Source: a virus
Strand: one strand, 5' to 3'
Length of the DNA stretch: 64,000 nucleotides
IMG/VR virus record: IMGVR_UViG_3300029267_002158
Coordinates: 9,812-73,811 of that record
Part shown: positions 12,479-46,437 of the stretch, piece by piece
How the letters are laid out: every line of letters begins with the position of its first letter
How positions within the stretch are numbered: position 1 is the first letter of the stretch
Program-made: the position numbers and the translations under genes
Notes under the pieces: generated by a model
What the model was told of the DNA's origin: nothing
Database searches by the model: none
Seen by the model: the letters and a program-made list of their open reading frames with translations, nothing else

Positions 12479-13066
12479 ATGAACAAAGAGGGATTTACAA
12501 AGGTTCCAGTTGGCTTACGATTAAGCGATGGGCGGACCGAGTATAAACACAGAAGATTTAAAGATGTCCTTGCGTTTCTTCATGACAGATACGGCGACAA
12601 GTATTTAAAGCTAGAACTTGGGCCGGGCAGGAAACAATCTTTGTTGACGCACCCGTCAATAGGATTGAATCCATCGGCTGACCCGGTGGCTGATATATTC
12701 TGGGATCTTAATAATGGCATTCCGCTACCCGGCGATTGTATCGACGAGATCTACTCGAATCAGACATTGGAGCATATCAAGCGAGAGAATTTTATCTTCT
12801 TGATGAATGAAATGTGGAGCGTAATGAAGGTTGGCGGTGTCATGGAGCACTGTGTACCGGAGTACACCTCCTCCGCCGCAGTCGGGGACCCGACGCACTA
12901 CAATATGTTTTCACGCGATTCTTTCAGATATTTTTGCATCCGCAACGACGGCACGATGTTTACTGACCGATTTTCTGACTACGGGATAACGTGCAGATTC
13001 ATGATGGAGTCTCAGGAGGTCAGGCCGGGACTTGACATCACTGTCAGAATGGTGAAGCTCAAGTGA
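12479..13066 (+). CDS. Class I SAM-dependent methyltransferase
   Basis: LELGPG, WDLNNGIPLP, QTLEHI, EMWSVMKVGG, DPTH. Confidence 0.8.
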   Translation: MNKEGFTKVPVGLRLSDGRTEYKHRRFKDVLAFLHDRYGDKYLKLELGPGRKQSLLTHPSIGLNPSADPVADIFWDLNNGIPLPGDCIDEIYSNQTLEHIKRENFIFLMNEMWSVMKVGGVMEHCVPEYTSSAAVGDPTHYNMFSRDSFRYFCIRNDGTMFTDRFSDYGITCRFMMESQEVRPGLDITVRMVKLK

Positions 13067-13596
13067 GAAAATATTGGAAATGCTTCCTCTCAACACTAAA
13101 GCACAAGTTCTATGTCTTGATTGCTGGCATGTGGCTTGGCGTTCCGCTGTGGCAATTGTTGGCACACGACATTAGCAAGTTTTCCGTTGCCGAGTTTCCG
13201 AGGTATGCAAGATATTATTTTGGGCAAGAAAAGGACAGAGGGGAATGGGCAAAGGCTTGGCACCATCACCAGCGGTTGAATGCACATCACCCAGAGTATT
13301 GGCTGCTGTCCTGGCGGTTCTGTGGAGGGGTGGGGCAGCCTGTTGCTGATAATGTTGTCGTCCTCCCTATGCCAGAGATGTATGTTCGCGAGATGGTTGC
13401 TGACTGGTTTGCGGCGTCCAAGATTTATACTGGCAGGTGGGACATAGCGACGTGGCTGAACAAGAATGGCCCAAAGATGATAATGCACAAGGGCACCGTG
13501 CGGCTCGTTGGGGATATTATGGTCGAGATGGGATACTACCTTACTGATAACTGCTCCTGGTCATGGATGGCGGGCGAAAGGTTTTTGAGAAAATGA
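13063..13596 (+). CDS. DUF5662-like His-rich (HD-like) protein
   Basis: HK..V, HDISKFS..EF, AWHHHQRLNAHHPEYW, MP..YVREMVADW. Confidence 0.7.
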   Translation: MRKYWKCFLSTLKHKFYVLIAGMWLGVPLWQLLAHDISKFSVAEFPRYARYYFGQEKDRGEWAKAWHHHQRLNAHHPEYWLLSWRFCGGVGQPVADNVVVLPMPEMYVREMVADWFAASKIYTGRWDIATWLNKNGPKMIMHKGTVRLVGDIMVEMGYYLTDNCSWSWMAGERFLRK

Positions 13597-14192
13597 ATTA
13601 TCTTATCGAGGAGTTGGTAAGAAGGCAAAACCTTACGGTGAGGGGGCAAGACTGGGATACAAACCACGAGCGTCTTACAAAAAATGTGGTTGATCAATTT
13701 GCTCCTCTTATTCCAAAGGGGAAGGTAGTTGATGTTGGTTGCGGGAAAGGACTTGCGAGGAAGCACTGGGTGCGTCACGGCTTTGATTGGGTTGGTGTGA
13801 CAATTGGCCCTGACTGGGAGTATATGAAGCACAAAGAGTGCGTGCGGGGTGATATGCACATCCTGTCAAGAATCGTTGACGCTGATGTTGTATACGCAAG
13901 GCATGTGCTAGAACATTCACCAATGCCGGTTGTGGCTCTGCGTCGGTGGATGGATATATCGACGCGCATTATTGTCGTTGTTCCAAAACCAACACCTCGC
14001 GCCATAGATGACACAGCGCACTTAAGCGTGTTGCCCAGAGTAAACTGGATTAAGTATTTCAACTTTCTTGGGTTGAGAATTGCGCTACAATCAGAAGTGG
14101 AGTACAGTAACCCAGCGCCGTGGCCGCAAACCGGTGGCGAGTTCAGATTTCTTCTATCACACAATCAAAAAAAGCTATTTTGCAGGAGGTAA
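13593..14192 (+). CDS. Class I SAM-dependent methyltransferase
   Basis: VVDVGCGKG, GDMH, YARHVLEHSPMP. Confidence 0.85.
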   Translation: MNYLIEELVRRQNLTVRGQDWDTNHERLTKNVVDQFAPLIPKGKVVDVGCGKGLARKHWVRHGFDWVGVTIGPDWEYMKHKECVRGDMHILSRIVDADVVYARHVLEHSPMPVVALRRWMDISTRIIVVVPKPTPRAIDDTAHLSVLPRVNWIKYFNFLGLRIALQSEVEYSNPAPWPQTGGEFRFLLSHNQKKLFCRR

Positions 14193-14195
14193 GGG

Positions 14196-14984
14196 GTGAG
14201 GCCCATTTTCTTTATTGGAAACAAGCGATCAGGCACGTCGCACGTGGTAAGACTACTCAATGCTCATCCGAATGTCCATGTGTGTTACGAGCAAGACTTA
14301 GCATGGATTCTATATCAGTGCGAAAAGGGATGGTGGCCTGATTTGGTGGGGTATAAATATGACACGCCTTATGGAATGTGGGGCGCTTTGTGGCGATGCA
14401 AGAACTATAATCACTTTGGAGGAATAAATATTGCGAATGACAAGCACGAAGCCATCAGGAATGCTTACTTTAAAGCATCCCTGGCATTGATGGAGGATTC
14501 TCCTTCTGGCAAGTTTCGTGACGCAATAAAGTGGATAGGCGATAAAAAGCCTGTCCAAAACGCAGATCCGGAGGTATTCGATTTCATACGAAGGCATTTC
14601 CCCGATGCAAAGTTTATACATCTCATTCGCCATGTGGCAGACTTCGCTGAGAGCACCAATTCCAGGATTGCGTGCTACAAGCACGGTCCAAAATTCTGGT
14701 ATTATGAAAGAGATCACCTATTCAGAATGTGGGCAATAATTGAGGGGTGGGTCCTGAGAGACAAGGAGCAAGCGCCGGATTGCATAATTGATGTACGATA
14801 CGAGGATTTGTGCAGCTCTCCCGTCGAGGAAATGGAAAGGGTGTTCAGTTTTCTCGATCTGGAGATGGATTCGCGCGTTGAAAGGATAGTCAGCGAGACC
14901 ACTACCCCCATCCCCAAGTACGATAGATCTGTTTCTGATTTCGGATCTGCGAGAGAGATAATGAGGGCGTACTCCTATGCGTAA
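14196..14984 (+). CDS. PAPS-dependent sulfotransferase
   Basis: IGNKRSGTS (5'-PSB loop), LLNAHP, GDKKP, FPDAKFIHLIR, VRYEDL. Confidence 0.9.
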   Translation: MRPIFFIGNKRSGTSHVVRLLNAHPNVHVCYEQDLAWILYQCEKGWWPDLVGYKYDTPYGMWGALWRCKNYNHFGGINIANDKHEAIRNAYFKASLALMEDSPSGKFRDAIKWIGDKKPVQNADPEVFDFIRRHFPDAKFIHLIRHVADFAESTNSRIACYKHGPKFWYYERDHLFRMWAIIEGWVLRDKEQAPDCIIDVRYEDLCSSPVEEMERVFSFLDLEMDSRVERIVSETTTPIPKYDRSVSDFGSAREIMRAYSYA

Positions 14985-15486
14985 GGCGTCATTTTTATTT
15001 TGCAGGGTCTTGTTTACTAAATTCGGCGTTGACCCGGCGGCGGGCAGGGCAATTGATGTTGGCGGGGCGGACAGGATTGTATATCTCAAAAAGAAGATGC
15101 CAAACCCCCTACTGGAGTGCAGTCCAGATCTGGACTTCTTCGACAATGGATTTCTTGGTTCTGATAATCGCGATTTCCTGAATGAGGATGACGTTGCTCC
15201 CCTGGAGGGCAAATACAACATTGTTTACAGCTTCGACACCTTGGAGCACGTCAAGGACCCGTGGTTGTTTTACAAAAACATGGTTCGTGTTTCAAAGAAG
15301 GGAGGGCATATATTTATAGCAGCGCCATTCAGGCGGCCTTACCATCCGTCCCCTGGTGATTATTGGAGGTTTACGCCGGAGGGGCTTAAGTTGCTTTTCG
15401 AGAAGATGGACAACGTCAAGGTTCTGGCCGCTGAGTGGGACATTGATCTTGTCGGTTCCGTTTTATTAGTCAGGAGGACAGAATGA
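14977..15486 (+). CDS. Class I SAM-dependent methyltransferase
   Basis: IDVGG, TLEHVKDPW, KKGG, PYHPSPGDYWRFTPEGL. Confidence 0.85.
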   Translation: MRKASFLFCRVLFTKFGVDPAAGRAIDVGGADRIVYLKKKMPNPLLECSPDLDFFDNGFLGSDNRDFLNEDDVAPLEGKYNIVYSFDTLEHVKDPWLFYKNMVRVSKKGGHIFIAAPFRRPYHPSPGDYWRFTPEGLKLLFEKMDNVKVLAAEWDIDLVGSVLLVRRTE

Positions 15487-16523
15487 AAAGAAATATCTTA
15501 CTGGTGATCATTGATTGCTTGCGTTTCGACAAAGTCAATGAGGATCTCATGCCGTTTACACGGCGATGGGGAATGGAGAATGTGTGGTTTAGCAATCACC
15601 GGGTTGTTAGCCATTGCACCGACCCATCTATCACAATGATGCTAAGCGGCGTTCATCCTGATGTAATTGGATTGTACTCAATGATGTACGAACACCGAGA
15701 TTACACTATTCCCAATGACATTAAAATGATCTCGGAGGTCGCTCGTGGGTATGGATACTTCACCGGCCTGGTATCTAACCTTGCGAGGTGGTATAGGCGG
15801 GGGCAGAATGTGTACCTTGATTGTCGCGGGTGGGCCGGAAGCAAAATCTTTGACGAATCTGTGCGGCTTGTCAAGAGTTTCAATCTTCCATGGTTCCTCA
15901 TTGTTCACGACGATTCCTGTCACCGTGAATACGAACGCGGCAGCTATGATAACGCTTGCCGCGCAGTGGATACCTATATCAAAAAGCTGCTCGATTCTGT
16001 TGACCAAGAAAACACAGACATCATTATCACGGCGGACCATGGCGAGGGACTGGGGCAGGAGAGCGTGACAGGGAGAAAGATTATCCAGCACGGATTTGGC
16101 CTCGATCCGTTTCTCACACACGTCCCTTTGCTGGTGAAGAGGGGGGCGGGCGATATGTTTCCCAAGAAATGTGTAATAGACCAGGTGACGGACAATATGT
16201 ATATTTACCAGGCGCTTAGATATAGAATTTGCGGCGCGAATGCCATTCCGGCGTTTGGCAGGCCGGTGTTTCAGGCTGGCGATACCCCGCCAAACATTCG
16301 ACATAGGGGCATTGTCCTCCCCGACCAGAAACAGTTCATTATCGAATCGCAGGGCGGAAAGGTGAATGGAAGGTATTATATAGGCCAATTCACAGAAGGG
16401 GAAAAGCGCAGCGCCGAGGAGATGTTGGCCGGCCACTGTTCCAGACATGGCATTGATTACTGGGCGGAGAGTATGGAGCCGGAGGCGGAATCAAGGCTAA
16501 GGGGGTTAGGATACTTTGGATAG
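15483..16523 (+). CDS. Sulfatase-like hydrolase/transferase (alkaline phosphatase superfamily)
   Basis: NILLVIIDCLRFD, CTDPS, IITADHGE, HG..L...HVPL. Confidence 0.85.
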   Translation: MKRNILLVIIDCLRFDKVNEDLMPFTRRWGMENVWFSNHRVVSHCTDPSITMMLSGVHPDVIGLYSMMYEHRDYTIPNDIKMISEVARGYGYFTGLVSNLARWYRRGQNVYLDCRGWAGSKIFDESVRLVKSFNLPWFLIVHDDSCHREYERGSYDNACRAVDTYIKKLLDSVDQENTDIIITADHGEGLGQESVTGRKIIQHGFGLDPFLTHVPLLVKRGAGDMFPKKCVIDQVTDNMYIYQALRYRICGANAIPAFGRPVFQAGDTPPNIRHRGIVLPDQKQFIIESQGGKVNGRYYIGQFTEGEKRSAEEMLAGHCSRHGIDYWAESMEPEAESRLRGLGYFG

Positions 16524-17126
16524 GATAAACGAGGACAGATTTAGTCTAATTCAAAGCAAGGAACTTGGTTACTGGAAGAACACGCATTGCGATCCTAGGG
16601 GCCGTGGTATCATTACGACAGAAGGTTCATCAGTCACATGAGGAGGTTTGATACTGTTGTTGATGTCGGGAGTGGCCCTGTCCCGTATTTCTGCAATCAC
16701 AACGTAAGGTTCGGGCGAGCGGTTGCCGTAGATCCCCTTGCTGTACCTTATTCCAAGATAGACAAATACCAACCATTCGTCAGCAAGTGCGAGTACTCGA
16801 CGGCGAGCGGAACCGTCGAGTTATTAAGCGGCTTTGCTGATGCTGTGTTTTGCATGAATACATTGGACCACTGCCAAGATCCAGCGTTTGTTCTGGGTGA
16901 GCTGAAGAGGATTGCAAGGCCAGTAAGTAAATTGTTTTTTCAGTGCGATGTTGGCAAGAAGCCAGACCACCTGCACCCGCACACCATTGATGCAGACTGG
17001 GTATCAAGTGTGCTTTTGAAATGGTTTTCTCCTATTGTGAATTATACCTCAAAGAGTTGGAAATTTGATTGCGATGTCTTATGGTTTGTGGGAGATATGA
17101 AAAATGAAAATAGTCCACGTCAGTAA
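16516..17126 (+). CDS. SAM-dependent methyltransferase, apparently split by a 1-nt frameshift at 16598-16601
   Basis: VVDVGSGP, AVDPL, CMNTLDHCQDP; N-terminal piece MDRINEDRFSLIQSKELGYW starts at TTG 16516 in another frame. Confidence 0.75.
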
Positions 17127-18054
17127 ACGAAAGAAGCATGACAAAGACGGTTTGCACCTTGGTGGAGTCGAGGCGTTTTCAAGCTACCTGAAGGAGGTGA
17201 TTCCTGAAATGGAATTGTTCTCCTGGCTCGATTTCAATGATTGGCTCGCGACCCCGGACATACCAGACTTCGAGAGGGCCTCGATGCTAAACACTTACCT
17301 CTTGGAAGTTGGCGGGATTGACGAAGAAACAATTGTCATAGTCGATGGGTACTGGGGGCTCGGCCTAGAGGGGAAGGTAGCGCGATTAATATCCGTTTGT
17401 CACGGCAGCTTGTATGGCCGGTTTATTCAGTCCCAGATTTATCCTTGGGGCGGAGTGGTCGATATGGAAGAGGTTGAGGCTCAGCTATACATGTTTAAAA
17501 ACTCAGAGGTAGTAAGTGTATCGTCCGAGTCTCATTTAGAGTTGCTCAAAGCCGGCGTACCAGGGTCAACTGTTATTCGTCACGGCGTACCGCTAGACAA
17601 GTTCATGCCGTATCAAAAGAAGAGAGATGTGTGGATGCACGCTGCAACATCAGCGCGCAAGGGCGCGGATCTCTTGCATCATATTGCAGCCGAGGTCGGA
17701 GAGGGGTTCAGCATCGAAGCCATGAATGAGCGCAGTGGCATACCAAAGAAAAAGTCTATGAGACTGTCCCAAGCCAAGGCTCTTATTGCTCCTACAAGGC
17801 ACGAGGGAAATTCCTATTTGCTCCTCGAAGCACTTGCTAGCGGAACACCGTTGCTGACATATCAAACGGGTCTCGCTTGTGAGATGGATGAGAGATGTGG
17901 TATTATCACAGACGATTTATCTCCAGCGAACTTTGGGAGGCATATCAGGCATTGGGATGAATACACCTTTGCCCCACGAGAATGGGCAGAAGAGAATTTC
18001 TGTTTTGCAGATTTCGAGAGAGATTGGAGAGATTACCTTGACTATCCTGATTGA
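17104..18054 (+). CDS. GT-B (GT4-like) glycosyltransferase
   Basis: GGVE, IRHGVPLDKF, RKG, PTRHEGNSYLLLEALASGTP. Confidence 0.9.
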   Translation: MKIVHVSKRKKHDKDGLHLGGVEAFSSYLKEVIPEMELFSWLDFNDWLATPDIPDFERASMLNTYLLEVGGIDEETIVIVDGYWGLGLEGKVARLISVCHGSLYGRFIQSQIYPWGGVVDMEEVEAQLYMFKNSEVVSVSSESHLELLKAGVPGSTVIRHGVPLDKFMPYQKKRDVWMHAATSARKGADLLHHIAAEVGEGFSIEAMNERSGIPKKKSMRLSQAKALIAPTRHEGNSYLLLEALASGTPLLTYQTGLACEMDERCGIITDDLSPANFGRHIRHWDEYTFAPREWAEENFCFADFERDWRDYLDYPD

Positions 18055-21000
18055 GATACCAACAAAGGGCAGGGATTCAACACTGGGTCGTTGCCTTGCG
18101 GCCCTGTACAATCAGTCGTGTCAGGGCTTCGATGTGCTAATTCTGAATGATGGCTACCATCCCGTCGGTGATACAAAGACAACGGAGTTTATCATTTCAG
18201 AGATGGCGAGGCACCATGACATCTCTGTCCGGGATGGCTCACGCATCAGTCAAGCGCACAATCACAACATGCCGCTTTATGATCGTGAGCTTCTGGATTA
18301 CGAGTACATTCTTCGCCTCGACGACGACATTCTACTTGATCGTACAGCACTGGCAAGGATGGTTGCTTTTATGGACAAGCACCCCAATGTCGGCGCTGTC
18401 TCCGGTTTGTGGTTTGAGATGGAGTGGAAGGACAAAGAGTGGCATGACCGCGCAGAGATGAGCTTTAGCCCTGAAACTAAGCAAGAGACAAGCGGCGACG
18501 TCGGGGCTGTCAACTCTAATTGGCAGCAGAGGATGTACCATCCGTCCAACGAGCCACAGGCTGTAAACCACCTTTATGGGCCGTGCATGTATCGAGCCGG
18601 CGCAATGCGTCATGCGGGCGGCTGGCCGGAGGTATACAGCAAGGGGGTGGCTCACGGCGAGGAAACAGATGGTACCTTTCGTCTGTGTATAGACGGGTTC
18701 GATCTTTTTGTGCTACCTGACGTCACTGGGCAACATCTAAAGACCAGCGGTGGTATTAGGGCCGACAAGGACGTTGGAAAGAAGCAGTTTACCGACTGTA
18801 TAAAATGGAGAAACAGGCTTCCGCTGATAGAGGGTATAAATTTCAACCCCACTGTCGCAGTGTGGTGCCAGCATTCATTTGGAGTCGGCGGTGCCCAGAG
18901 ACAGTTTTATCAAACAGTTAGCTTGTTGCAATCCAAGTCTGGGCTCAGAGTAGATCCCGTCTTTACGTCCCAGTATATGCAGCCCGAAGAGTGCGAAGAA
19001 GTCTTCGGCGTCTCCTACGAGGAGCGCGATCCACTGGATGAATACGATGTGTGCATTGTCATGGGGCATGAGCCATTTGTGCCCGTGAAAGCGAAGCACT
19101 ACATTTTGTACGTCTTCTTTCCCGAACCAAAGGCGGTGTTGCAAAGTAATTTTGACAGCAGAATAAGAGCGATAGTGGGCAACAGCAAGTATACCGCTCA
19201 ATGGATAGAGAACAGGTGGCGTTACAAAGCAAGTCACATATATCCCGCAGTGGACATGATAGGCGTGGACGATGCAGAGAAAGATGACCTTATCCTCTGT
19301 GTCAGCCGAGGAGATCCGCACAAAGCGCCTATGTGGCTGATGGAGAGATTCAAGGAAATTGATCTCCCTGGCTGGGAATTTCATCTAGTTATGGCTACCA
19401 CTGGCGGCGTCTACACGTCATACGAGGAACAACTGCGGGAATTTGCAAGCAAGAACGACGATATTTTCATTCATGAGAATGTCAGCGATGACGACCTGGT
19501 TAAAATGTATCGCAGGTCAAAGATTCTCTGGTCCGCAAATGGCATTCACGGTTCTGAGAACCCGCAAAACGCAGAGCATTTTGGGTTGACACCAATTGAA
19601 TCGTGGTCTGCAAAGTGTCTGCCGATTGTGTTTGACTGGGGCGGGCACAAGGAAACGGTGGACAAGTGCTTCAGGTGGAGCGACGCAGATTCTCTAAAGA
19701 AGCTGACCGTCAAGGTTGCGCAAGAGGGGTACGGAGTGTTTGGTTGTGGCGAGCCAGTGGCTCTTTCTCTGTACAACGAGGGGGATTATGCCTGGGAATT
19801 TGAGCAACTTATCAGGAGGGTAAACGCCCTGGCTTTGAATGTCGAGAGAGTGGAAGTAACAGAGGTGAAAGCGCCAAAGATTCGTGTTGGAGCCTGGACG
19901 GATTCCCCAAGACTGACAACCGGCTTTGGGACTGTTGCGAGCCAGATTTACAACCTTCTGGGGAAGCAAAATGATATTGAGCTTTGCGTCTTCGGCATGA
20001 TGGATTCTATGCACGCTAGGCCAGATGAGGAGATGCCATTCCATTTTATGCCATCGCCATTGTCAGATCCGGAGGGCTGCGGAAACAAAACAATGCCCCA
20101 CTTTTTCAACTGGGCTAGGCCAGACGTAATGTTTTGGCTTTACGATCCGGGAGGTATGAACTCTCAAATATCCACTGCGAAAATCACCGGCTGGTCAGGG
20201 CCGAACGTCGCTTATTTTCCCATTGAGGGATTGCCCGCCCCAAGGCCTGTTGGTCAGCTTGTGTCAAATATTGAATATCCCGTGACCTATTGCAAGTCAG
20301 CAGCGGAGCACATCAAGCTGCTGACTGGCACAGATGTTGATTTTGCGTATCACGGTATAGATCATGCCCCGTTTGAACCGCTGAATGATAGAGACAGGAA
20401 TCAGATTAGAAATTTAGTTGGGTGGGGCGATAAGTTTGTGATCATTAACGTGGGCACAAACAAGAGGGTAAAGCAACAGCCCTATCTCATAGAAATGATG
20501 AGGCACATTCTTAAGATGGGGCATGACGACATCTATCTGTATATGCACACCAAGGCATTTGACAATCACGTCCTGCAAGGATGGGTTTTGGACTATATCA
20601 GGGACCTGTACTCTGCGATTGACGGCAGCGATTTAAAGAAGCATATTCTGTTTCCGAGAGATCATGCAAAGTGGGCAGGCCCGCCATACAAATTCCATGA
20701 AGATATACCGGTGTGGAAAATGACAAAGCCTCCCCTTCCAAGCATGAGGGGTGCAATATTCGAGGCACTGGACTTGATAACAAGGTACCAGATTGCCGAC
20801 CTGTACGTTGATACGTCATCCGTAGAGGGATGGGGATTGCCCACTCTTGAATCTGTGGCTTGCGGCACACCAGCAATAACCGTTGACGACGGGCATGTCA
20901 GGAGCGAGGTTCATTCAAAATATTGCTACACCGTAAGTCCAAAGCACTGGACAACATGGCATACTGGCGCAAGGTTGCAGCTTATTGATCCTGAAGAGAT

Positions 21001-21151: not shown

Positions 21152-21338
21152 CTACGACTACACCATAGCAGTTGATTATCAAGGCGACTGGGTGCGCTGC
21201 AATTGTGGCAGGGCCTTGTTTTGGGTTAGCATAGCATACGGCGTAGTGAATATCAAATGCCCCTCTTGTGGCAAGGTTGTTCGCGTTGTTCTAGGAGTGA
21301 TGATAAAGGAACGACTTGACAATGTAGAGCAAACGTGA
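21129..21338 (+). CDS. Com-like zinc-finger regulator
   Basis: VRCNCGRALF...IKCPSCGK matches the Mu Com family pattern. Confidence 0.7.
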   Translation: MENSKGNNYDYTIAVDYQGDWVRCNCGRALFWVSIAYGVVNIKCPSCGKVVRVVLGVMIKERLDNVEQT

Positions 21339-21344
21339 TATAAT
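21316..21344 (+). promoter_or_regulatory. sigma70-type promoter of head/tail operon
   Basis: TTGACA-N17-TATAAT with extended TG. Confidence 0.85.
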
Positions 21345-21385
21345 AACAGATAATTACGTAATTGAGCCCATCAGACCGTTGAGTC

Positions 21386-21424: not shown

Positions 21425-21434
21425 GGAGGTTCTT

Positions 21435-35799: not shown

Positions 35800-35800
35800 A

Positions 35801-37838: not shown

Positions 37839-38551
37839 CAAAGTTCTCAATAATCATACCTGTGAGAAACAGACTGGGTGAGCTGTGCAGGGCACTAAAG
37901 AGCGTGGACTCCCAAACATTCCAGGATTTTGAATGCGTCGTGGTTGATGATGAATCAAGATTACCGATAGGGCCGGTTGTCTTTCAGAATTACGGGCCGT
38001 GGTTCACCGGTATTCGCCTTGACGATCGCAGCGAGCGCGTCGTGGCGTGGACAAAAGGTATTGAGGCGACCAGTGGAGAGTGGCTTTGCCGACTGGACAG
38101 CGACGATGAGTTTGCGTCGCATTATCTAGAGGCAGTCAACGGCGCTATCTTACAACACCCTGAAGCAAGGTGCTTTAACTTCGGGGCAGTTATCCATCAC
38201 CGAAAACGATCCGACAACGGCCCTGTGTACACTAGAACAAGTATCAGGCCGACGTTCAGGCCGAAGTGGCTCGGTGATAAGCACGTGGAGTTCAAAAGCG
38301 GGAAAATAGGAACGGGACACTTTGTGTTCCATCGAAGCGTGCTCGATGAAATAGAGTGGTTGCCACAAGTCAGGAGCCCGTACAAATTTCATGAGATGGC
38401 AACAGATGTGCATCACCTGTACCCGTTCCCAGGGACTACTTTGGGGAATCCTTGGGGTGATGACTATCTCGCATTCTACCGCATCACAAGAAAGTTTCAA
38501 TCAATCCCTATCGAGCCGGCGCTGTATATTCAACACACGAGGACAGGATGA
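37835..38551 (+). CDS. GT2 glycosyltransferase
   Basis: FSIIIPVRNR, VVVDDES, LDSDD, GDD. Confidence 0.9.
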   Translation: MTKFSIIIPVRNRLGELCRALKSVDSQTFQDFECVVVDDESRLPIGPVVFQNYGPWFTGIRLDDRSERVVAWTKGIEATSGEWLCRLDSDDEFASHYLEAVNGAILQHPEARCFNFGAVIHHRKRSDNGPVYTRTSIRPTFRPKWLGDKHVEFKSGKIGTGHFVFHRSVLDEIEWLPQVRSPYKFHEMATDVHHLYPFPGTTLGNPWGDDYLAFYRITRKFQSIPIEPALYIQHTRTG

Positions 38552-39267
38552 TAGATATTTGCATTGTTACATTCAATAGACTTAACTTTTCAACCGAGTG
38601 CATAGAAAAGATTGCTCTCAGGACAAGAACGCCGCACCGTATTATCGTTGTAGACAACGGCTCGACGGACGGAACGGCTGAGTGGATAGCAGACACAGGG
38701 ATCATTGATAAGAAAATCTTGCTCAGAGAGAACAAGGGCATACACTACGCCTGGAACCTTGCTTTGCTGCATGTCAAGTCAGATTACTTTGTCTGCTGTG
38801 ACAACGACATACTTTGCCCTGATTTGCGACCGGTTGATTGGCTAGGCCAGCTATGGGACTTGATTGAGAATTATCCTCAATACGCTGCTATATCAGCGAG
38901 GCCACAAGTGCTTGTTGGGGAACCTGGTGATATGTTCGATGTTGATAAACCAATTGTTGACAGACCGCACGTCGGCGCATCTTTGAGGATTATGCGCGCC
39001 GACGCTGTCCGTAGGGCTGGTGGGTGGGAGAAGACCACCAGGCCAGAGAGGAATCACGAAGAGAGGTGGATTTGCTCCCGGCTGAAGAAATTGAATTTCT
39101 CGGTTGGTTACGCAAAAGATATTCGCTGCTGGCATTTGTTCGGAGATAGCAATTGGGGGTACAAGAACGTACCTCACGGCCACAGGGATGTTTGGCCGCC
39201 GGTCGAAGTGTGGGATTCTGAGAATTTCAGAGCAAAATTCGACCCGATGACATTCGAGGAGATGTGA
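38548..39267 (+). CDS. GT2 glycosyltransferase
   Basis: IVTFNR, VVDNGSTDGT, CDND. Confidence 0.9.
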   Translation: MIDICIVTFNRLNFSTECIEKIALRTRTPHRIIVVDNGSTDGTAEWIADTGIIDKKILLRENKGIHYAWNLALLHVKSDYFVCCDNDILCPDLRPVDWLGQLWDLIENYPQYAAISARPQVLVGEPGDMFDVDKPIVDRPHVGASLRIMRADAVRRAGGWEKTTRPERNHEERWICSRLKKLNFSVGYAKDIRCWHLFGDSNWGYKNVPHGHRDVWPPVEVWDSENFRAKFDPMTFEEM

Positions 39268-39950
39268 TAATGGACATGTCATTTTTGGTTACAGGGCACG
39301 GACGTTCAGGAACAAAGTGGTTATCTAGGTTGCTGAACCAAGATCCAAGTGTTTCTGTGCATCACGAGCCGCTGGCGCAGGCTGACAGGGCTGCCTATGC
39401 CAAGATATATTACGGCAAAATGCGTGCTGACGAGTACCTTATGGCGCGCAAAATTGGAATGACAACCATTTGGAACAGAGCTAGCAGCAAGGGATTCGCA
39501 GAGGTAAACTCATACATGCGCTATTGCGCTAATGAATACAGACTTGTCTTTAATGTCCCTGTGGCCGCCATCGTCAGGGACGGACGATGTGTTGTAAGAT
39601 CTATGATGGCGCGTGGGGTGTATCAAAAGCCAGGCTATCCTGAGATACTTGGGCACGGTATGACCCCATTCGAGAAATGCTGCTGGTATTGGGCCGATAC
39701 ATATAGGCGTTTATCCAACATAGAGACTTTTCGCCTTGAGGATCTGAATAGTAATTACGATGAGTTTTGCCGATTGTGCTACATGCTCGATGTAAAAGTC
39801 AGTGCTCGCGTGTGGGAAAAGCACAGACGCACCCTTGTTAATGCAGATGTAGGATTGAGGACACCGCCATACTGGGGGAGGAAGCAGAAACTTGCCTTCG
39901 ACGACGTTGCCGGAGACATATACTATAAATTCTACGGAGGAATATTGTGA
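39264..39950 (+). CDS. Sulfotransferase-family protein
   Basis: VTGHGRSGTKWL, HEP, IVRDGR..V.S, FRLEDL. Confidence 0.85.
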   Translation: MIMDMSFLVTGHGRSGTKWLSRLLNQDPSVSVHHEPLAQADRAAYAKIYYGKMRADEYLMARKIGMTTIWNRASSKGFAEVNSYMRYCANEYRLVFNVPVAAIVRDGRCVVRSMMARGVYQKPGYPEILGHGMTPFEKCCWYWADTYRRLSNIETFRLEDLNSNYDEFCRLCYMLDVKVSARVWEKHRRTLVNADVGLRTPPYWGRKQKLAFDDVAGDIYYKFYGGIL

Positions 39951-40192
39951 GTGATAGTGATATGATGGACAAATTACTTCGCGGATGGATAAGGACCGCG
40001 AGACTTAACATTGCAATGCTAGATGTGGTGAGATCTAATGCAATAGACCTTGTAACCGTGCTGGAAGGCAGAGACATCTTTAAGAATGTTGATGGATACC
40101 CAGGGGAGCTTGACGATCAAGTGAGCGGGATAATCTCAAGTTTAAAAGCTATAGTTCTGGAAACGAGTAAGATCATGGTTAAGCTGAAATGA
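39947..40192 (+). CDS. Hypothetical protein
   Basis: RBS GGAGGA; 4-nt overlaps on both sides. Confidence 0.65.
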   Translation: MSDSDMMDKLLRGWIRTARLNIAMLDVVRSNAIDLVTVLEGRDIFKNVDGYPGELDDQVSGIISSLKAIVLETSKIMVKLK

Positions 40193-41106
40193 GAATAGCT
40201 ATAACAGATACGAACCAGGGAAAATTCACAAGAGATATGATGAGGCATTGGCAGTCGCAGGGCCATCACGTAAAACTCTTTGGCACTTGCCGGCGACCGC
40301 ATATGGAGTGGGCCGACGTGCTCTGGTTCGACTGCGTGGATGGCAATCTTGTAGCCGCCACAAAAAAAGCCCCTGAGTTAACCGAAGGCAAGTTTGTTAT
40401 TGCCAGGGCTATTGATATTGATGTGTGGGCCTGTCATTTCAATGCTGTTAATTGGTCAAGGGTAAACCATATTATATTCATTGCGAAGCACATCAAGGAT
40501 TACATGCTCGAAGAGAAGAACATGCGCCACAAGGTGCATTGCCCTGTTCATCTCATACCGTGCGGGGTCGATACGAATAGATTTACTATGCGAAGAAACC
40601 CCGTGAGAAACAATAATGTCGCTGTAGTGATGAGGTTGTGGCACGGGAAGGGCATAGCCTTGCTGTTACAGCTTATTGCCGATATGCCAGATTATCATTT
40701 CCATATTTGTGGGAAATGGGGGATGTCCGGCATAGAGAAAGGGTGGTTCAAACACTATATCGACGACTACCTGAGCCGGCACGACAACTGGACACATGTC
40801 GCTCAGGTCGATGATATGAATGAGTGGCTGGAGGATAAGGCGTACGCCCTCATTCCGTCGATGAAGGAAGCTTTTAGCTATGCAGCCGCCGAGGCGATGG
40901 CTAAGGGGATCAAGCCCGCCATCCATAATTTCTACGGCGCTAGCACTCTGTGGCCGGAGGAGTACAGGTGGTCCACAATCGGACAAGTGAGAGAAATATT
41001 CAGTGAGGAGTACAAGCCTGAAAGATACAGAGGGTATATCGAGGGGGCCTACCCCTTATCAAAAATGATGAACGCATTTGACAAAATTCTGGAGGAGGCA
41101 TCTTGA
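40189..41106 (+). CDS. GT-B (GT4-like) glycosyltransferase
   Basis: IPCGVDTNRF, KG, SMKEAFSYAAAEAMAKGIKP. Confidence 0.9.
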   Translation: MRIAITDTNQGKFTRDMMRHWQSQGHHVKLFGTCRRPHMEWADVLWFDCVDGNLVAATKKAPELTEGKFVIARAIDIDVWACHFNAVNWSRVNHIIFIAKHIKDYMLEEKNMRHKVHCPVHLIPCGVDTNRFTMRRNPVRNNNVAVVMRLWHGKGIALLLQLIADMPDYHFHICGKWGMSGIEKGWFKHYIDDYLSRHDNWTHVAQVDDMNEWLEDKAYALIPSMKEAFSYAAAEAMAKGIKPAIHNFYGASTLWPEEYRWSTIGQVREIFSEEYKPERYRGYIEGAYPLSKMMNAFDKILEEAS

Positions 41107-41912
41107 ATACCATTGTTTTTCCGGTTGTCCGCACAGACTTGATTAAACATGCTCTTGGGTCATTTTGGCAACACAATGACAGAGAGCTGCACAGGGTTAT
41201 CGTCATCGATCAGTCCAGAACTGGACTTGACGACCTGGTTAACGCCGGCTTGGCGCACGCCCACCTTCGAGTACACAGGAATCTAGGATTTGCCGGCGCA
41301 TCCAATAGAGGGATACGCCTTGCTGACACCAGATACGTTACCGTGTCAAATGACGACGTGATCTGGTTTGATCCTCGGTGGTGGGAAGGTGTAATGAAAA
41401 TATTTAACCGTGATGAGAAAATGGTCGCGGTTAACCCCTCTTGCCCCAAGCTGCCAGGATGGAGCTTCGGAGACAAGGTTGATAGGTACATCGCTGGTGC
41501 CGATTCTCCAGAGAAATGCGACTGGGATACGCTGAAGAAGGAGACCCCATTGCGCGGCCTCGTGCACGGAATCTGTATGTGGTGTACGACGTTTGATATG
41601 AGTAGGCTCAGCGACATTGGCGTCATTGGTGATAGGGGGCACTTGTTCGACGAGCGGTTCTACCCCGGAGGATCTGAGGATTACGATCTGAACGCCAGGA
41701 TATTCAGGGCCGGCGGGCTGGCGGTAGGAACTCATGAGAGCTGGTTGTGGCATTATTGGGGGAAATCAAAGGATGAAAAGGGGCATGATGGCATGGCTCC
41801 GATAGCGGAGAAGCCAGCGTGGAACAGAATGGGTGATTTGTGGGAAAAGGGATTCACTGTGCAAGGTGGGTCCGCCAGAAAGACAGATGAGGTCTACACA
41901 GATTCTCTCTAG
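41103..41912 (+). CDS. GT2 glycosyltransferase
   Basis: VIDQS, NLGFAGASNRG, NDD, FDERFYPGGSEDYD. Confidence 0.9.
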   Translation: MNTIVFPVVRTDLIKHALGSFWQHNDRELHRVIVIDQSRTGLDDLVNAGLAHAHLRVHRNLGFAGASNRGIRLADTRYVTVSNDDVIWFDPRWWEGVMKIFNRDEKMVAVNPSCPKLPGWSFGDKVDRYIAGADSPEKCDWDTLKKETPLRGLVHGICMWCTTFDMSRLSDIGVIGDRGHLFDERFYPGGSEDYDLNARIFRAGGLAVGTHESWLWHYWGKSKDEKGHDGMAPIAEKPAWNRMGDLWEKGFTVQGGSARKTDEVYTDSL

Positions 41913-41922
41913 GTGGTGAATT

Positions 41923-44900
41923 ATGGCCGAAGTCTTTAACATTACGCATGATGCAGGAAACTTAAACGAATATGATTCGTTGCAAACCGGTGACGATCTC
42001 GCAGCGACAGAGGCAGCAGCACTTGGGAATACGAGCTATGGGCTTGCTGTAACCATAGACTCCACGACAAGCAGATGGGGAGCGATAGGCTTTGCAGAGC
42101 TATCTAATGGCGGCTATCGCTATAGATTCTATGTTGATCCAAACGGCCTGACGATGGACGGCGGCGACGAGTTTCGCCTCTTTGAGGTAAACGATGGCGG
42201 CCAAATTCGCCAATTCGTAGATATGGAATACTCCAGCAGCGCTTACCATATTCGCGCCCAGATAAGAGATGACGGCGGTAGTTGGTATTCAACAAGTAGC
42301 TCAACAACAATCACTGACGCAGAGCACTACATCGAGGTATGTGTCGAGTATGCTGCAACTAGCAGTTCAGAGGACGGTATTCTCACGCTGTGGATCGACG
42401 GTGTCCAGGAAGACACCATCGAGGATCTTGATTTGCACAGCCTTGGCGAACCAGACGGTGCAAGAGTTGGTGCTACAAATGGCCTTGAATCCGGCACGTC
42501 TGGAACCCTGTATCTCGACGAGATTGTTTTGCGTGATGACGATACCGAGATAGGCCCTGTTACCAGCGCCTCCACCTCAACCTCGACTACTACATCAACC
42601 ACCACTACAACCACCACATCAACGTCAACCTCGACAACCTCCACTAGTACAAGTACCACAACCACATCAACGTCAACATCAACTACAACAACTCTTTGGA
42701 CAGATGTTGACGTTGACCACGAAAGCTGCGCCTTCAACGAGTATGACAGGCTTGTAAACAGCAGCGATCTCGCAATAACACAAGCCGCAGGGCTCGCTGA
42801 CACAAACTGCGGTTTGGCAGTAACTATTGATTCAACATCACCAGCGTATGGCGAGATTGATCTCGGTGTCTTATCGGACCATACTTACAGCTTCAGATTC
42901 TATGTTGATCCAAACGGCCTGACGATGGACGGCGGCGACGAGTTCAGGCTTGTTGAGATGGTAGATAGTGTAGTTGGTGTACTCTCCTTTGTGGACATAG
43001 AGTATTCTAGTAGCGCTTACCATATTCGCGCCCAAGCAAGGGACAAAAATGGAGATTGGTCTTCGTCTGGCAATTACACAATAGATGATGACGAGCACTG
43101 CATAGAAGTTAATGCGCTTACTGACATTGCCGGCGAAACTCATAGCGCAACTTTCACTTTAAGGATAGACGGTGAGCAGAAAACCAGCGTAGGCTCCCTT
43201 GATGTTACTGGCCTGAGCGTACCAGACTCGATCCGTATTGGAGCCACAGCAGGTATTGAATCCGGCACATCAGGTACATTTTATCTTGACGAGCTTATAG
43301 CCACAGACTCGTCGAGTGAAATCGGGACGAAGCTCGGTCCGTACTTTATGCAGCCCAATGGAGACAGAACGTCCAACTGGTCAGCCGGCGGCTCCGGCTC
43401 AGGGCACTGGGATAGAGTTGCAAAAGACAGGCAAGCCAGCGATGTGCCTGACAAAACGAGCTATATCTACACAAGCAGCGAATCGCCTATAATAGACAGT
43501 TTCACTATGACCAACGTTGACATCGCGGGCGGCAATGCTGAAGATATAGCGGTGTGGTTATATTGCGAGGTTGAGAACGTAGGAAGCTCAGCGTATGTCG
43601 ATGTAAGTCTCTGGAATAGCGACGAGACAGCCCAATATGGTGCTACAAAACAGATAACTCCAATTTCTACCCCGTCATGGCCGTCGGTAAAATTCGAGAA
43701 TAGAAATCTCTCGCAAGCACAAATGAACGATCTTGTGGTGAGAATTTCATACGTCAACGATCCTGATCCACCAGAGGAAATAAAGGTCTATGCGCTTTAC
43801 GCTGAGGTAACTAGACTCTCTGGCACTACCTCGACAAGCACAAGTACTACAAGTACGACGTCCACCTCGACCTCCACAACCTCGACATCGACATCGACAA
43901 GTACTACGTCAACAAGTACTTCAAGCACAACCTCGACATCGACATCGACATCGACATCGACTACTTCAACAAGCACCAGTACTAGCACCAGTACCAGCAC
44001 GACCTCGACCTCGACAAGTACAACTTCCACAAGTACATCGACAACCTCAACCACCTCCTCTACTTCAACGGGTACGACTACGACGCTTGCTTGCGACACG
44101 TGGTCGTGTGACGCGGTTGTTGGAGATCATGGATCGAGCGATAACATTGGTGATATGCTCATCTTGCAACGTGTCCGTGCCCTTGCCAGCGGACACGTGA
44201 CTAGCGTAAGGTTCTACGCCAATTCTGTTACAATGGACGCGAACGTTCACGCAGCTTTGTACACAGATAATAGTGGCCTGCCAGACAGCAGACTAGCTAA
44301 CGGCGAGGCGACTGTTACCTCGACCGGTCACTTTAGTGTTAACTTGACGGTTAATCCTGCCGTTTCCGCAGGCAGCTATTACTGGATCGCAATTTTCTAC
44401 CTGCAAGGCACGGGACTTACTGTCACTGTTGATGACACAGCGCCATACGTGGCCGACGAAGCAAGGTATACTGATTATGTTAGTGTGTCATATCCGTTCC
44501 CGTCAAAGATCACAGAGAGTTACGAGGCAAGCGAGTGTGTATATACCTGCATGTACATTGCTTGCAGCGCGACAACTACTTCCACCTCGACCACGACAAG
44601 CACCACTACTTCCACCTCGACCACCAGTACCAGTACCAGTACGACCTCAACCAGTACCAGTACCTCTACCTCGACAACCTTAACAAGTACATCGACTAGT
44701 ACAACATCGACTAGTACCAGTACCTCTACAACATCGACAAGTACAAGTACCTCGACCTCTACCTCGACAACCTTAACAAGTACAAGCACATCTACCTCCA
44801 CCTCCACCTCCACCACGACGACTGCGACCTCCACTTCTACCTCGACAACAACACTGGCCTTCTCTACTTACAGGAAGCGCAAGCCTGTCAAGCCGCATAT

Positions 44901-46437
44901 CGAGATCAAGACTGGCGAGAGAGTATATCGGCCAAAGGCGACCGCTATGAAATGGGGAGCGGTGTACTCTCCGTCCGGCAGCGGCTTTGGCTATTTGTCC
45001 TTCACCGTGCTTCGTGACGCGGGAAAAGACTACCCGGATATTGGGTACGGAATGGAAGTTACATTAAGAAAAGGACTGACGAAGATCCTGTTTCACGGCG
45101 TCATCACAAAGATTCAAGAAGAGAGAGGTGACGCCAGCAAAATCTCTGTTGGCTGTACGGGGTGGAAGGTGGTGTTTGAAAACGACCGACTTAACAGAAT
45201 ATATACTGATTCAAGAACGGAAAGCGGGGCGTGGATCGTGGATGAGGAGCCAAGTGGATTGTTTCAGCCAAGCAAGTTCGACATCCGCCTTGGTTCAGAG
45301 ATAGAGGTGCGCCCAAGGGAGCGGATCGACTTCACCGCCGATGAATATAGCGAGGCGGTGTACTCTATGCCTAGTGGGCAAAATGTAAAATGGGTCGAGT
45401 TCTCTTGGGCGACTGTATTCCCTAGCGGGTACCCATTCAAATTCGAGATCCTGAGCAATGACAATACTTTGTTGACAACCACGACAACCGGCGAGCAATC
45501 CGGCAGTTCCAGGGCCGTTATCTCTGGTGACGCAACCACTGTGTCAATCCGCCTTACCATCACAGACGCGGGAGAGAGCACGGCTGCGGATGATGCTGCA
45601 TATGCCAAGATCACGGCTGTCTCAATATCAGCCAAGGACACGTACCCTGTTGATATGGCGGTGGTGTTAAAGGACATTGTGGACTATCTTTATGACGCAG
45701 GGCACGGAATTTCTAACGATAAGACTAAGATAGAATCAACAAACCGCACCTTACATCCAGCATATTTCCTCTCTGACCAAACACCAAGGGAGATTCTGGA
45801 ATGGTGCGCCAACAGAGGGAATAGTAACGGCAAGCCTGTGTGTTGGGGAATGGAGCTGAATGATAGGAGGAGGGTCTTTCTAAAAGAGCAAGACCTGGAG
45901 ACCGTTGGTTATTACTTGCCACACGACGAGGCAAAAACAAACGTGACTGGCGACGCACAAAACTCTCATCAAAAACTGTATGCCACGTACAAGGGGATTG
46001 ACGGAGAGGAATATCGCACAGCCGATACCACTGATCAGGATACCATAGACGATATGAATGGTTATTTCAGAAGGGACGTGATGGGACTTGACGGGGAAAT
46101 GAGTAGTGGCCTGGCGAACTTCGCAGTGGCCTTGAATCTGTCAGAAAACAAGAAGCCCACGACCTCATCTAGTTGGGAGGTCAAGGGCTCCATTCTTAGC
46201 AACACGGGCAAGCGCGTCCCTTTTGACGAGATCCTGCCTGGCGTGATGGTAACAGATCGGAATTTCAAGTCCCGTGAAGCGATCTTGCAAGGAGGAGATG
46301 ACTTTAGAGACAGGGCCACCACATTCTTTCTTATAGGAACGGAGATTGATTATGACTCAGGTGTCTGTCAGTTGATAAACGGGAGGGACGACAAGACCCT
46401 AAGTCGATATATGATGGCTATTGCAGATATGCCCTAG
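41923..46437 (+). CDS. Large tail-tip protein: beta-sandwich domains, three Ser/Thr mucin-like tracts and a C-terminal hub (Tal-like) region
   Basis: Duplicated N-terminal domain; TS tracts; C-terminal GFGYLSF...VTL...LFHGVI...ISVGCTGW typical of hub proteins. Confidence 0.75.
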   Translation: MAEVFNITHDAGNLNEYDSLQTGDDLAATEAAALGNTSYGLAVTIDSTTSRWGAIGFAELSNGGYRYRFYVDPNGLTMDGGDEFRLFEVNDGGQIRQFVDMEYSSSAYHIRAQIRDDGGSWYSTSSSTTITDAEHYIEVCVEYAATSSSEDGILTLWIDGVQEDTIEDLDLHSLGEPDGARVGATNGLESGTSGTLYLDEIVLRDDDTEIGPVTSASTSTSTTTSTTTTTTTSTSTSTTSTSTSTTTTSTSTSTTTTLWTDVDVDHESCAFNEYDRLVNSSDLAITQAAGLADTNCGLAVTIDSTSPAYGEIDLGVLSDHTYSFRFYVDPNGLTMDGGDEFRLVEMVDSVVGVLSFVDIEYSSSAYHIRAQARDKNGDWSSSGNYTIDDDEHCIEVNALTDIAGETHSATFTLRIDGEQKTSVGSLDVTGLSVPDSIRIGATAGIESGTSGTFYLDELIATDSSSEIGTKLGPYFMQPNGDRTSNWSAGGSGSGHWDRVAKDRQASDVPDKTSYIYTSSESPIIDSFTMTNVDIAGGNAEDIAVWLYCEVENVGSSAYVDVSLWNSDETAQYGATKQITPISTPSWPSVKFENRNLSQAQMNDLVVRISYVNDPDPPEEIKVYALYAEVTRLSGTTSTSTSTTSTTSTSTSTTSTSTSTSTTSTSTSSTTSTSTSTSTSTTSTSTSTSTSTSTTSTSTSTTSTSTSTTSTTSSTSTGTTTTLACDTWSCDAVVGDHGSSDNIGDMLILQRVRALASGHVTSVRFYANSVTMDANVHAALYTDNSGLPDSRLANGEATVTSTGHFSVNLTVNPAVSAGSYYWIAIFYLQGTGLTVTVDDTAPYVADEARYTDYVSVSYPFPSKITESYEASECVYTCMYIACSATTTSTSTTTSTTTSTSTTSTSTSTTSTSTSTSTSTTLTSTSTSTTSTSTSTSTTSTSTSTSTSTSTTLTSTSTSTSTSTSTTTTATSTSTSTTTLAFSTYRKRKPVKPHIEIKTGERVYRPKATAMKWGAVYSPSGSGFGYLSFTVLRDAGKDYPDIGYGMEVTLRKGLTKILFHGVITKIQEERGDASKISVGCTGWKVVFENDRLNRIYTDSRTESGAWIVDEEPSGLFQPSKFDIRLGSEIEVRPRERIDFTADEYSEAVYSMPSGQNVKWVEFSWATVFPSGYPFKFEILSNDNTLLTTTTTGEQSGSSRAVISGDATTVSIRLTITDAGESTAADDAAYAKITAVSISAKDTYPVDMAVVLKDIVDYLYDAGHGISNDKTKIESTNRTLHPAYFLSDQTPREILEWCANRGNSNGKPVCWGMELNDRRRVFLKEQDLETVGYYLPHDEAKTNVTGDAQNSHQKLYATYKGIDGEEYRTADTTDQDTIDDMNGYFRRDVMGLDGEMSSGLANFAVALNLSENKKPTTSSSWEVKGSILSNTGKRVPFDEILPGVMVTDRNFKSREAILQGGDDFRDRATTFFLIGTEIDYDSGVCQLINGRDDKTLSRYMMAIADMP
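42124..42944 (+). repeat. Exact 50-bp direct repeat (42124-42173 and 42895-42944)
   Basis: AGATTCTATGTTGATCCAAACGGCCTGACGATGGACGGCGGCGACGAGTT in both copies of the duplicated domain. Confidence 0.95.
42562..42693 (+). repeat. Ser/Thr low-complexity tract 1 (~44 aa)
   Basis: Almost pure T/S codons. Confidence 0.95.
43825..44085 (+). repeat. Ser/Thr low-complexity tract 2 (~87 aa)
   Basis: Almost pure T/S codons. Confidence 0.95.
44572..44853 (+). repeat. Ser/Thr low-complexity tract 3 (~94 aa)
   Basis: Almost pure T/S codons. Confidence 0.95.

Follow-up and report, generated by a model that had tools for sequence, protein, structure and literature searches.

A GT4-like glycosyltransferase family associated with Ser/Thr tracts and a candidate virion glycosylation system in an uncultured phage

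To our knowledge, glycosylation of phage virions has been demonstrated only for some actinobacteriophages, in which it shields the particles from antibodies. In Gram-positive bacteria, cytoplasmic glycosyltransferases (GTs) of the GT-B and GT-A types (GtfA/GtfB and dGT1/GalT1; SdgA/SdgB) sequentially O-glycosylate the Ser-rich stalks of serine-rich adhesins. The virions of several mycobacteriophages (Che8, Corndog, Myrna and others) are reported to be glycosylated by phage GTs (Freeman et al. 2023, Cell Host Microbe 31:1216, as cited in PMC11256854, PMC13313380 and PMC12582341). Among giant viruses, the chlorovirus protein A064R is a GT-GT-methyltransferase fusion that builds a capsid glycan; giant-virus glycans are virus-specific, methylated and placed on virion proteins without host endoplasmic reticulum or Golgi enzymes, and some mimivirus clusters contain sulfate-metabolism genes (PMC9614988). 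Here we describe a 64,000-nucleotide stretch of the IMG/VR virus record IMGVR_UViG_3300029267_002158 (the window; bases 9812–73811 of the 73,811-bp record, the genome being called G000 in phage comparisons), in which two clusters of enzyme genes lie within the structural operon. The first gene of cluster 2 encodes a 414-residue GT4-like enzyme, GT414, and the gene following the cluster encodes a tail protein with long tracts of Ser and Thr (S/T tracts). Two relatives of this genome found in IMG/VR are referred to as G001, the closer one, and G002, which is more distant.

The G000 system resembles that of the mycobacteriophages in combining soluble phage GTs with methyltransferases. The mycobacteriophage enzymes are thought or have been shown to glycosylate the phages' own capsid and tail proteins in the cytoplasm. 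No homology links the transferases of the two: in 50,697 GenBank phage records, nothing comparable was found for GT414 (no match by tblastn) or for a triple GT fusion of cluster 1, whose only match was the Tetrasphaera TJE1 GT at 23% identity. The proposed acceptors also differ, being long, pure S/T tracts of a tail-tip protein, and the G000 system is far larger, with 10 GT domains plus sulfotransferases and an alkaline-phosphatase-fold enzyme; the genome has 49% G+C. As in the serine-rich adhesin systems, a long Ser/Thr acceptor gene adjoins cytoplasmic GT genes. Unlike in those systems, no GtfA/GtfB orthologue was found (Pfam, NCBIfam and PDB sequence searches gave generic GT matches only, those to GalT1 (E 2e-5) and SdgA (E 1e-3) covering only generic nucleotide-binding parts), there is no SecA2/Y2 export, and the product is a virus particle. 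Multi-domain GT fusions accompanied by separate methyltransferases are shared with giant viruses (PBCV-1 A064R/A061L/A111/114R; mimivirus fibril clusters; PMC9614988), which, unlike G000, infect eukaryotes and carry glycans N-linked to the capsid protein or on fibrils; many of them encode nucleotide-sugar synthesis genes, none of which was recognised in G000. A literature search on phage sulfotransferases or threonine-rich systems returned nothing relevant. Two elements appear to be new: a large GT4-like family, previously undescribed, whose members go with S/T tracts, and the presence of putative sulfotransferases in a phage structural operon.

The GT414 family and its association with Ser/Thr tracts

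IMG/VR was scanned with the alignment of GT414 and its G002 orthologue as the query; 124 relatives were returned and 80 loci, 29–46% identical over the full length, were retained. An S/T tract, defined as at least 20 residues with at least 80% Ser or Thr in an open reading frame (ORF) of at least 100 aa, lies on the same strand within 10 kb of the enzyme in 62 of the 80 loci, compared with one of 120 control loci drawn by random 14-mer (1.03 Mb vs 1.27 Mb of sequence; Fisher p = 5e-34). In 51 of the 62 tract-positive loci, less than 2.7 kb separates the end of the tract from the enzyme downstream. After collapsing the family at 70% identity, 34 of 45 clusters are tract-associated (p = 1.5e-24), and at 50% identity six of eight (p = 4e-8). 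At least four of the 18 tract-negative loci have tracts in shorter ORFs or barely beyond the fetched flank. In addition, three contigs were recovered independently by a TS-repeat (Thr/Ser) DNA-pattern scan and by the GT414 scan (p = 6e-9).

When the other GT414 loci were searched with a hidden Markov model of the C-terminal hub domain of the G000 tail protein, no hub homologue appeared, and therefore the acceptor-like proteins there differ. In contig L286, which has an SU10/P22-type portal, the major capsid gene is followed by two small TS-tailed proteins, whose tails end in TTTTL, and then by a GT414 homologue and by genes for a UDP-glucose-dehydrogenase-like protein, four GT2 enzymes, a GT1-like enzyme and a DegT aminotransferase. 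L341 encodes a protein of 1210 aa in which the jelly-roll domain of the G000 type is strung on S/T tracts. The enzyme is thus constant while the acceptor-like proteins differ in kind (hub, TS-tailed and jelly-roll). The small post-capsid proteins (L286:8580–9586; L300:7834–8490) are built of a ~50-aa domain with the pattern YY..(W/L)..YDG..W followed by a TS tail of 50–160 aa; on many podovirus-like contigs such proteins are candidates for glycosylated capsid fibres. At 90% identity the family comprises at least 1118 clusters, all metagenomic and of 415–455 aa, on contigs mostly up to ~52 kb; one member is labelled as a Podoviridae metagenome-assembled genome (MAG). Judged from these contigs, the GT414 family is large and apparently phage-restricted, occurring only on uncultured phage-type contigs.

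The AlphaFold2 model of GT414 has a GT-B fold composed of two Rossmann-like domains (predicted local distance difference test (pLDDT) 93; predicted template modelling score 0.88). Foldseek ranks BshA, MshA and further GT4 enzymes highest (E 1e-12 to 1e-14); a PDB sequence search gave no match. The EX7E motif is located in the C-terminal domain, and its glutamates (E306-x7-E314) are invariant in 30 homologues. Both the modelled fold and the motif identify GT414 as a member of the GT4-type retaining GT-B glycosyltransferases.

Tail protein and operon layout

The tail protein contains three S/T tracts (residues ~215–257, 634–721 and 882–977, ~225 residues in all), which are the only ones in the 73.8-kb genome. 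From the N-terminus, it is made of jelly roll A, tract 1, jelly roll A′ with domain B, tract 2, domain C, tract 3 and a C-terminal hub domain of 495 aa. Residues 1–213 and 258–472 form paralogous domains with 51% identity, and domain A also occurs in G002 and twice in L341. The model of domain A, of moderate confidence (pLDDT 69), is a ConA-like β jelly roll whose nearest structures are PL20 and PL7 lyases and lectin-like jelly rolls (template modelling score ~0.5). The combination of jelly-roll heads with a C-terminal hub domain suggests that the tracts connect the tail tip to heads that putatively bind or cleave glycans. Serine is encoded in the tracts by a mixture of TCN and AGY codons, which argues that their composition is selected at the protein level and is not a DNA microsatellite. 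The tract ends read TTTTL or TTTL (42679–42696, 44071–44088 and 44842–44856); these ends are common to the G000 tail protein and the small TS-tailed protein of the unrelated phage L286 (L286:8580–9011 and 9296–9586), and may represent a conserved tract terminus. Elsewhere in the operon, a 235-aa neck-region protein (25933–26640) has a short Ser-rich linker, SSSSSSKSS, which does not reach the threshold set for tracts; it may serve as a minor acceptor or be a plain linker.

The hub domain itself is widespread, with 598 relatives, nearly all of them without S/T tracts; among the 150 best hub homologues, drawn from 1.84 billion representatives, tracts are present in just one further protein. The hub relative P0009 (2043 aa) carries S/T tracts, P0005 has a 60% identical hub without the extension, and neither occurs in IMG/VR.

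The G000 record has 144-bp direct terminal repeats and is rated complete. Its structural operon, as delineated by the ORF map and by Pfam, PHROG and NCBIfam scans of the window proteins, runs on the + strand from ~5.4 to 46.4 kb of the window (Table 1). The major capsid protein has no match among cultured phages, and cultured relatives of G000 were not found. Enzyme genes for sugar, methyl and sulfate transfer occupy ~14 kb of this particle-building operon. The genes of both clusters are co-directional and tightly packed, adjoining ones mostly overlapping by 4–8 nt. These scans agree with an initial annotation of the DNA, made from its sequence alone, in the interruption of the operon by two enzyme clusters, in each of the enzyme classes named, in the lack of obvious transmembrane anchors in the GTs, and in the position of the tail gene 10 nt after cluster 2 with its ~225 Ser/Thr residues. 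The "Dit-like" label given there to the 831-aa protein has no family match behind it, and two small ORFs separate the gene from cluster 2. A scan for promoters and terminators between 33000 and 47500 gave counts not above those of shuffled sequence.

In hydropathy plots with a 19-residue window, none of the enzymes of either cluster shows a peak of the kind expected for a membrane helix, no GT reaching 1.6, and all are predicted on this basis to be soluble. The EX7E and DxD motifs are intact in the GTs of both clusters. No flippase or polymerase was found in G000, nor a Tyr or Ser integrase in G000, G001 or G002. A gtrABC-type seroconversion module was considered and rejected, as the hydropathy and integrase searches recovered neither membrane GtrA/GtrB-type proteins nor signs of a temperate life style. 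Just past the tail gene, on the opposite strand (46856–47668, −), is a Dam-type N6-adenine DNA methyltransferase (PF02086, 5e-27), beyond which lie a sliding-clamp-like protein (51389–52462) and an RNase H (54787–55296).

Within cluster 2, the PDB matches of the 238-aa GT2 enzyme are weak and fall on other GT2 enzymes, among them GalT1 of a serine-rich adhesin pathway. Sulfotransferase 2 has no PDB sequence match, and carries GRSGT and VRDGRCVVRS motifs for binding 3′-phosphoadenosine-5′-phosphosulfate (PAPS). In sulfotransferase 1, of cluster 1, both the 5′-phosphosulfate-binding motif (KRSGT) and the 3′-phosphate-binding R..S motif (IRHVADFAES) are present, and among solved structures a protein-tyrosine sulfotransferase comes closest to it (E 2e-5). 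Both proteins thus possess the PAPS loop and the R..S motif, with Pfam E-values of 8e-24 vs 1e-5.

Table 1. Features of the structural operon in the window (SAM, S-adenosylmethionine)
Feature	Position	Strand	Basis or remarks
Large terminase	5973–7619	+	Family scans
Mu-type portal fusion, 1598 aa	7531–12327	+	Family scans
Enzyme cluster 1	12479–21151	+	Between portal and prohead protease
SAM methyltransferase-like protein, 195 aa	12479–13066	+	Only PHROG 6636; 54% identity to Pfam-positive G001/G002 methyltransferases
DUF5662 protein, 177 aa	13063–13596	+	Pfam PF18907, 5.7e-33
SAM methyltransferase, 209 aa	13563–14192	+	Methyltransf_23/11; 42% identity to G001 methyltransferase
PAPS-type sulfotransferase 1, 262 aa	14196–14984	+	Sulfotransfer_3, 8e-24
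SAM methyltransferase, 169 aa	14977–15486	+	Methyltransf_23/11; 38% identity to G002 methyltransferase
Alkaline-phosphatase/sulfatase-fold enzyme, putative Thr nucleophile, 346 aa	15483–16523	+	Sulfatase, Phosphodiest and Metalloenzyme Pfam matches
SAM methyltransferase, 162 aa	16638–17126	+	Methyltransf_11; 34% identity to G002 methyltransferase
GT-B (GT4-like) enzyme, 316 aa	17104–18054	+	Weak Glyco_trans_1_4 match; EX7E at 234
Triple fusion GT2 + GT4 + GT4, 1037 aa	18038–21151	+	Pfam GT2 at 60–198, two Glycos_transf_1 stretches
Prohead protease	from 21423	+	Family scans
Major capsid protein	from 23005	+	Neck and tail genes come next
Tape measure	28412–33304	+	Family scans
831-aa protein ("Dit-like" gene)	33304–35799	+	No family match; two small ORFs, then cluster 2
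Enzyme cluster 2	36594–41912	+	Ends 10 nt upstream of tail gene
GT414, GT4-like GT-B enzyme, 414 aa	36594–37838	+	Weak Pfam match; first gene of cluster 2
GT2 glycosyltransferase, 238 aa	37835–38551	+	Glycos_transf_2, 1.3e-18; DSD motif
GT2 glycosyltransferase, 239 aa	38548–39267	+	Glycos_transf_2, 4e-19; DND motif
Probable sulfotransferase 2, 228 aa	39264–39950	+	Sulfotransfer_3, 1e-5, N-terminal loop only
81-aa ORF	39947–40192	+	No Pfam/PHROG match; 4-nt overlap with each neighbour; absent from the initial annotation
GT4 glycosyltransferase, 305 aa	40189–41106	+	Glycos_transf_1, 1.8e-8; EX7E at 227; PDB MshA-type match 4e-5
GT2 glycosyltransferase, 269 aa	41103–41912	+	Glycos_transf_2, 2.5e-8
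Tail hub-type protein, 1504 aa	41923–46437	+	Translation; hub domain relatives
S/T tract 1	42565–42693	+	
S/T tract 2	43822–44085	+	
S/T tract 3	44566–44853	+	

Cluster 1 and the related genomes

The complete genome of G001 (77 kb, with terminal repeats), whose major capsid protein is 59% identical to that of G000, has the core of cluster 1 in the same position: methyltransferases, the alkaline-phosphatase (AlkP)-fold enzyme, the GT-B enzyme and the triple fusion, at 42–54% identity. It contains no S/T tract anywhere, and cluster 2 is absent, there being no gene between the Dit-like gene and its 748-aa hub protein; GT414 has no match among its cluster-1 ORFs. Because cluster 1 is present in this tract-free genome, it is independent of the mucin-like substrate to which the initial annotation had tied it. 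The association of GT clusters with S/T tracts suggested there is strong for GT414 (62 of 80 vs one of 120 loci) and does not extend to cluster 1. Between cluster 1 and the prohead protease, G001 encodes a 561-aa Laminin_G_3 protein (L002:6413–8098), which may be a head decoration protein and a candidate cluster-1 acceptor.

G002 (94 kb), with a triple fusion and a hub 36% and 40% identical to those of G000, also has cluster 1. From its Dit-like gene to its hub gene come a 420-aa GT-B enzyme, a rhamnosyl-O-methyltransferase-like protein, a β-helix protein, a 499-aa ORF and an 812-aa GT2/GT1 fusion, directly followed by a 1717-aa hub protein with three large poly-Ser tracts. The GT-B gene that opens this cluster upstream of the hub is the orthologue of GT414 (33% full-length identity, E 4e-66), the sole cluster-2 enzyme with an orthologue in G002. 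The 499-aa ORF (L011:14387–15886), right after the β-helix protein, has ~409 residues of nearly pure poly-Ser; it may represent a second putative acceptor, or its reading from low-complexity sequence may be artefactual. In its cluster 1, G002 has a 157-aa sortase-domain ORF (L008:8081–8554; Pfam Sortase, 2.5e-12) without a G000 counterpart. G002 is the same 94,133-bp scaffold as MEWP01000063.1 (L267), binned in the Zixibacteria MAG RBG_16_53_22, and another hub relative, L268, is on an Anaerolineae MAG contig; both bins are possible host hints or cases of mis-binning. Seven further hub relatives, found in metagenomes and MAGs and mostly on short contigs, lack S/T tracts, and no GT occurs in the upstream sequence that these contigs contain. 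Among hub relatives, GT and S/T tract coincide in two of two vs none of eight cases (p = 0.022), the phages not being phylogenetically independent.

Cluster 1 is therefore kept in G000, G001 and G002, between portal and protease, irrespective of S/T tracts. The 316-aa GT-B enzyme has orthologues in G001 (49% identity) and G002 (39%), and the triple fusion, which contains a DDD and two EX7E motifs, is 50% and 36% identical over its full length to the respective proteins; it gave no PDB sequence match and has no relative in the genome-contig collection. Among the three phages, sulfotransferases are found only in G000, and the DUF5662 protein has no BLASTP counterpart (E ≤ 1e-3) among the cluster ORFs taken from G001 and G002. 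The protein at 15483–16523 was first described as a sulfatase-fold enzyme. Its fold is supported by Pfam, and identity as a formylglycine sulfatase was rejected: the C/S-x-P-x-R nucleophile motif is absent, T-D-P-S-I being aligned to C-A-P-S-R of the arylsulfatase 6hhm with a Thr at the nucleophile position. This alignment and the invariance of SHCTDP(S/A) in the proteins of G000, G001 and G002 (orthologue identity 46% and 40%) argue that it is a predicted member of the alkaline-phosphatase superfamily with a Thr nucleophile, of the phosphotransferase or phosphodiesterase type.

Proposed pathway and alternative explanations

Gene content, catalytic motifs, solubility, synteny and co-occurrence statistics are what we observe. 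They suggest that the phage probably encodes its own cytoplasmic machinery for glycosylating virion proteins, with cluster 2 and the tail protein forming one functional unit. The acceptor, the order of the reactions and the donors are those we infer. The substrate of GT414 would be the S/T tracts that join the jelly-roll domains in the hub protein, and its most likely step is transfer of the first sugar from a host nucleotide sugar to hydroxyls of Ser/Thr; the remaining four cluster-2 GTs would extend the chains, and the cluster-2 sulfotransferase would probably cap them with sulfate from host PAPS. The product would be stiff, hydrated, protease-resistant mucin-like stalks that keep receptor-binding or polysaccharide-degrading domains off the tail tip. 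Cluster 1 would be a separate, older module with four methyltransferases, the AlkP-fold enzyme, the GT-B enzyme and the triple GT, joined in G000 only by a sulfotransferase and DUF5662; it most likely builds a methylated glycan on the head or another virion component, at discrete sites and not on S/T tracts. Methyl, sulfate or phospho groups would presumably go onto the glycan. Of the cytoplasmic virion O-glycosylation originally proposed for this DNA, the part concerning the tail protein gains from the GT414–tract link and the soluble enzymes, and the link of cluster 1 to the tracts is lost.

Other explanations can be given for the same genes. The S/T tracts might be flexible linkers, and the infecting phage might use its GT clusters on glycans of the host envelope (O-antigen, capsule, teichoic acid or S-layer glycan), perhaps to block superinfection or to release progeny from debris. 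Most GT2 and GT4 enzymes of these families make cell-surface polysaccharides, the closest NCBIfam models are those of exopolysaccharide, teichuronic acid and lipopolysaccharide enzymes, and in seroconverting phages GT genes adjoin tail genes. However, with no membrane-anchored GT, flippase, polymerase or integrase found, and with the link between GT414 and tracts (62 of 80 loci, with differing acceptor proteins) left unexplained, we regard this as quite unlikely. The clusters, mainly cluster 1, might instead produce a methylated or sulfated oligosaccharide that stays free or is bound to lipid, with no attachment to the tracts. It would be similar to the mycobacterial cytoplasmic polymethylated polysaccharides, and might be packed in or coat the particle or serve as a metabolic or defence product. 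The retention of cluster 1 in G001, which has no S/T tract, and its union of soluble GTs with many methyltransferases speak for such a product. Against it, all three phages keep the cluster between portal and protease, which hints at a role in the head, there is no sign of an acceptor of the lipid or primer type, and cluster 2 is not covered; together these points make this unlikely as well.

Modification of DNA is very improbable. Assembly of di- and trisaccharides on DNA by phage GTs has been documented (bioRxiv 10.1101/2023.12.21.572611; PMC13326640), and the GTs could hypermodify phage bases as in T4 and in phages with glycan-modified 5-hydroxymethylcytosine or 5-hydroxymethyluracil, the methyl- and sulfotransferases decorating the sugars. 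Nevertheless, no thymidylate-synthase-type hydroxymethylase (PF00303) was detected in G000–G002, control genomes giving matches; a search for Tet/JBP (PF12851), made without a working positive control, gave none either; the only DNA methyltransferase seen is the Dam-type one; and the genes sit in the late structural operon, with GT414 tracking S/T tracts. A pathway that works on proteins in the cytoplasm is consistent with the soluble enzymes and with searches in which no flippase, polymerase, integrase or hydroxymethylase for DNA bases was found.

Several points weigh against virion glycosylation by this pathway. All arguments for it are genomic. The fold of GT414 is that of a generic GT4 enzyme, with no feature specifically pointing to a peptide acceptor; its 80 loci are not phylogenetically independent, 61 of them falling in one 50%-identity cluster, and ~12 have no S/T tract nearby. 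The assignment of sulfotransferase 2 is weak, no acceptor was recognised for cluster 1, and sulfate could go on protein and not on sugar, because sulfotransferase 1 is nearest to protein-tyrosine sulfotransferases. The general enrichment of GT2 with S/T tracts across viral contigs is modest. GT2 density is 1.9 per 100 kb in TS-tract contigs vs 0.4 in random ones (~5x); GT2 is present in 15 of 41 vs six of 41 records of at least 17.5 kb (p = 0.04), and at least three GT2 matches occur in six of 54 TS-tract records vs none of 49 (p = 0.03). The permutation test on the distance from S/T tract to GT2 was not significant (p = 0.10), and the intended "short-ORF" control of the GT2 test was contaminated by real S/T loci adjoining GT clusters. 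The HPAT/SGT1-like family PF23452 (GT95/GT96) is present in one of 35 TS-tract contigs (G008) and had no match in G000–G002 at E ≤ 0.1, in a search without a working positive control. The only other TS-tract viral record with sulfotransferases is G034 (IMGVR_UViG_3300027881_000007), in which three consecutive ones (55354–58309) lie ~35 kb from the S/T-tract ORF.

A wider proposal, which we advance tentatively, is that GT414 represents an undescribed, phage-restricted family of peptidyl Ser/Thr O-glycosyltransferases (>1100 clusters) that, in many uncultured phages, starts the mucin-like glycosylation of tail proteins and capsid-decoration proteins. G000 could then carry on its particle O-glycans with sulfate, methyl and possibly phospho substituents, the first viral case of this kind in a bacteriophage, with a second, conserved pathway in its head module. 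GT414 would make phage O-glycosylation directly testable and would serve annotators as a marker for mucin-like phage appendages, and the soluble enzymes may glycosylate simple TS repeats in the bacterial cytoplasm, a possible use in glyco-engineering. The question is raised of what role sulfated or methylated glycan stalks would play in the adsorption, stability and evasion of aquatic and sediment phages. Taken at this strength, the results suggest that glycosylation of phage virions is much wider, and that one GT4-like family tied to S/T tracts in very different phages provides a handle on it.

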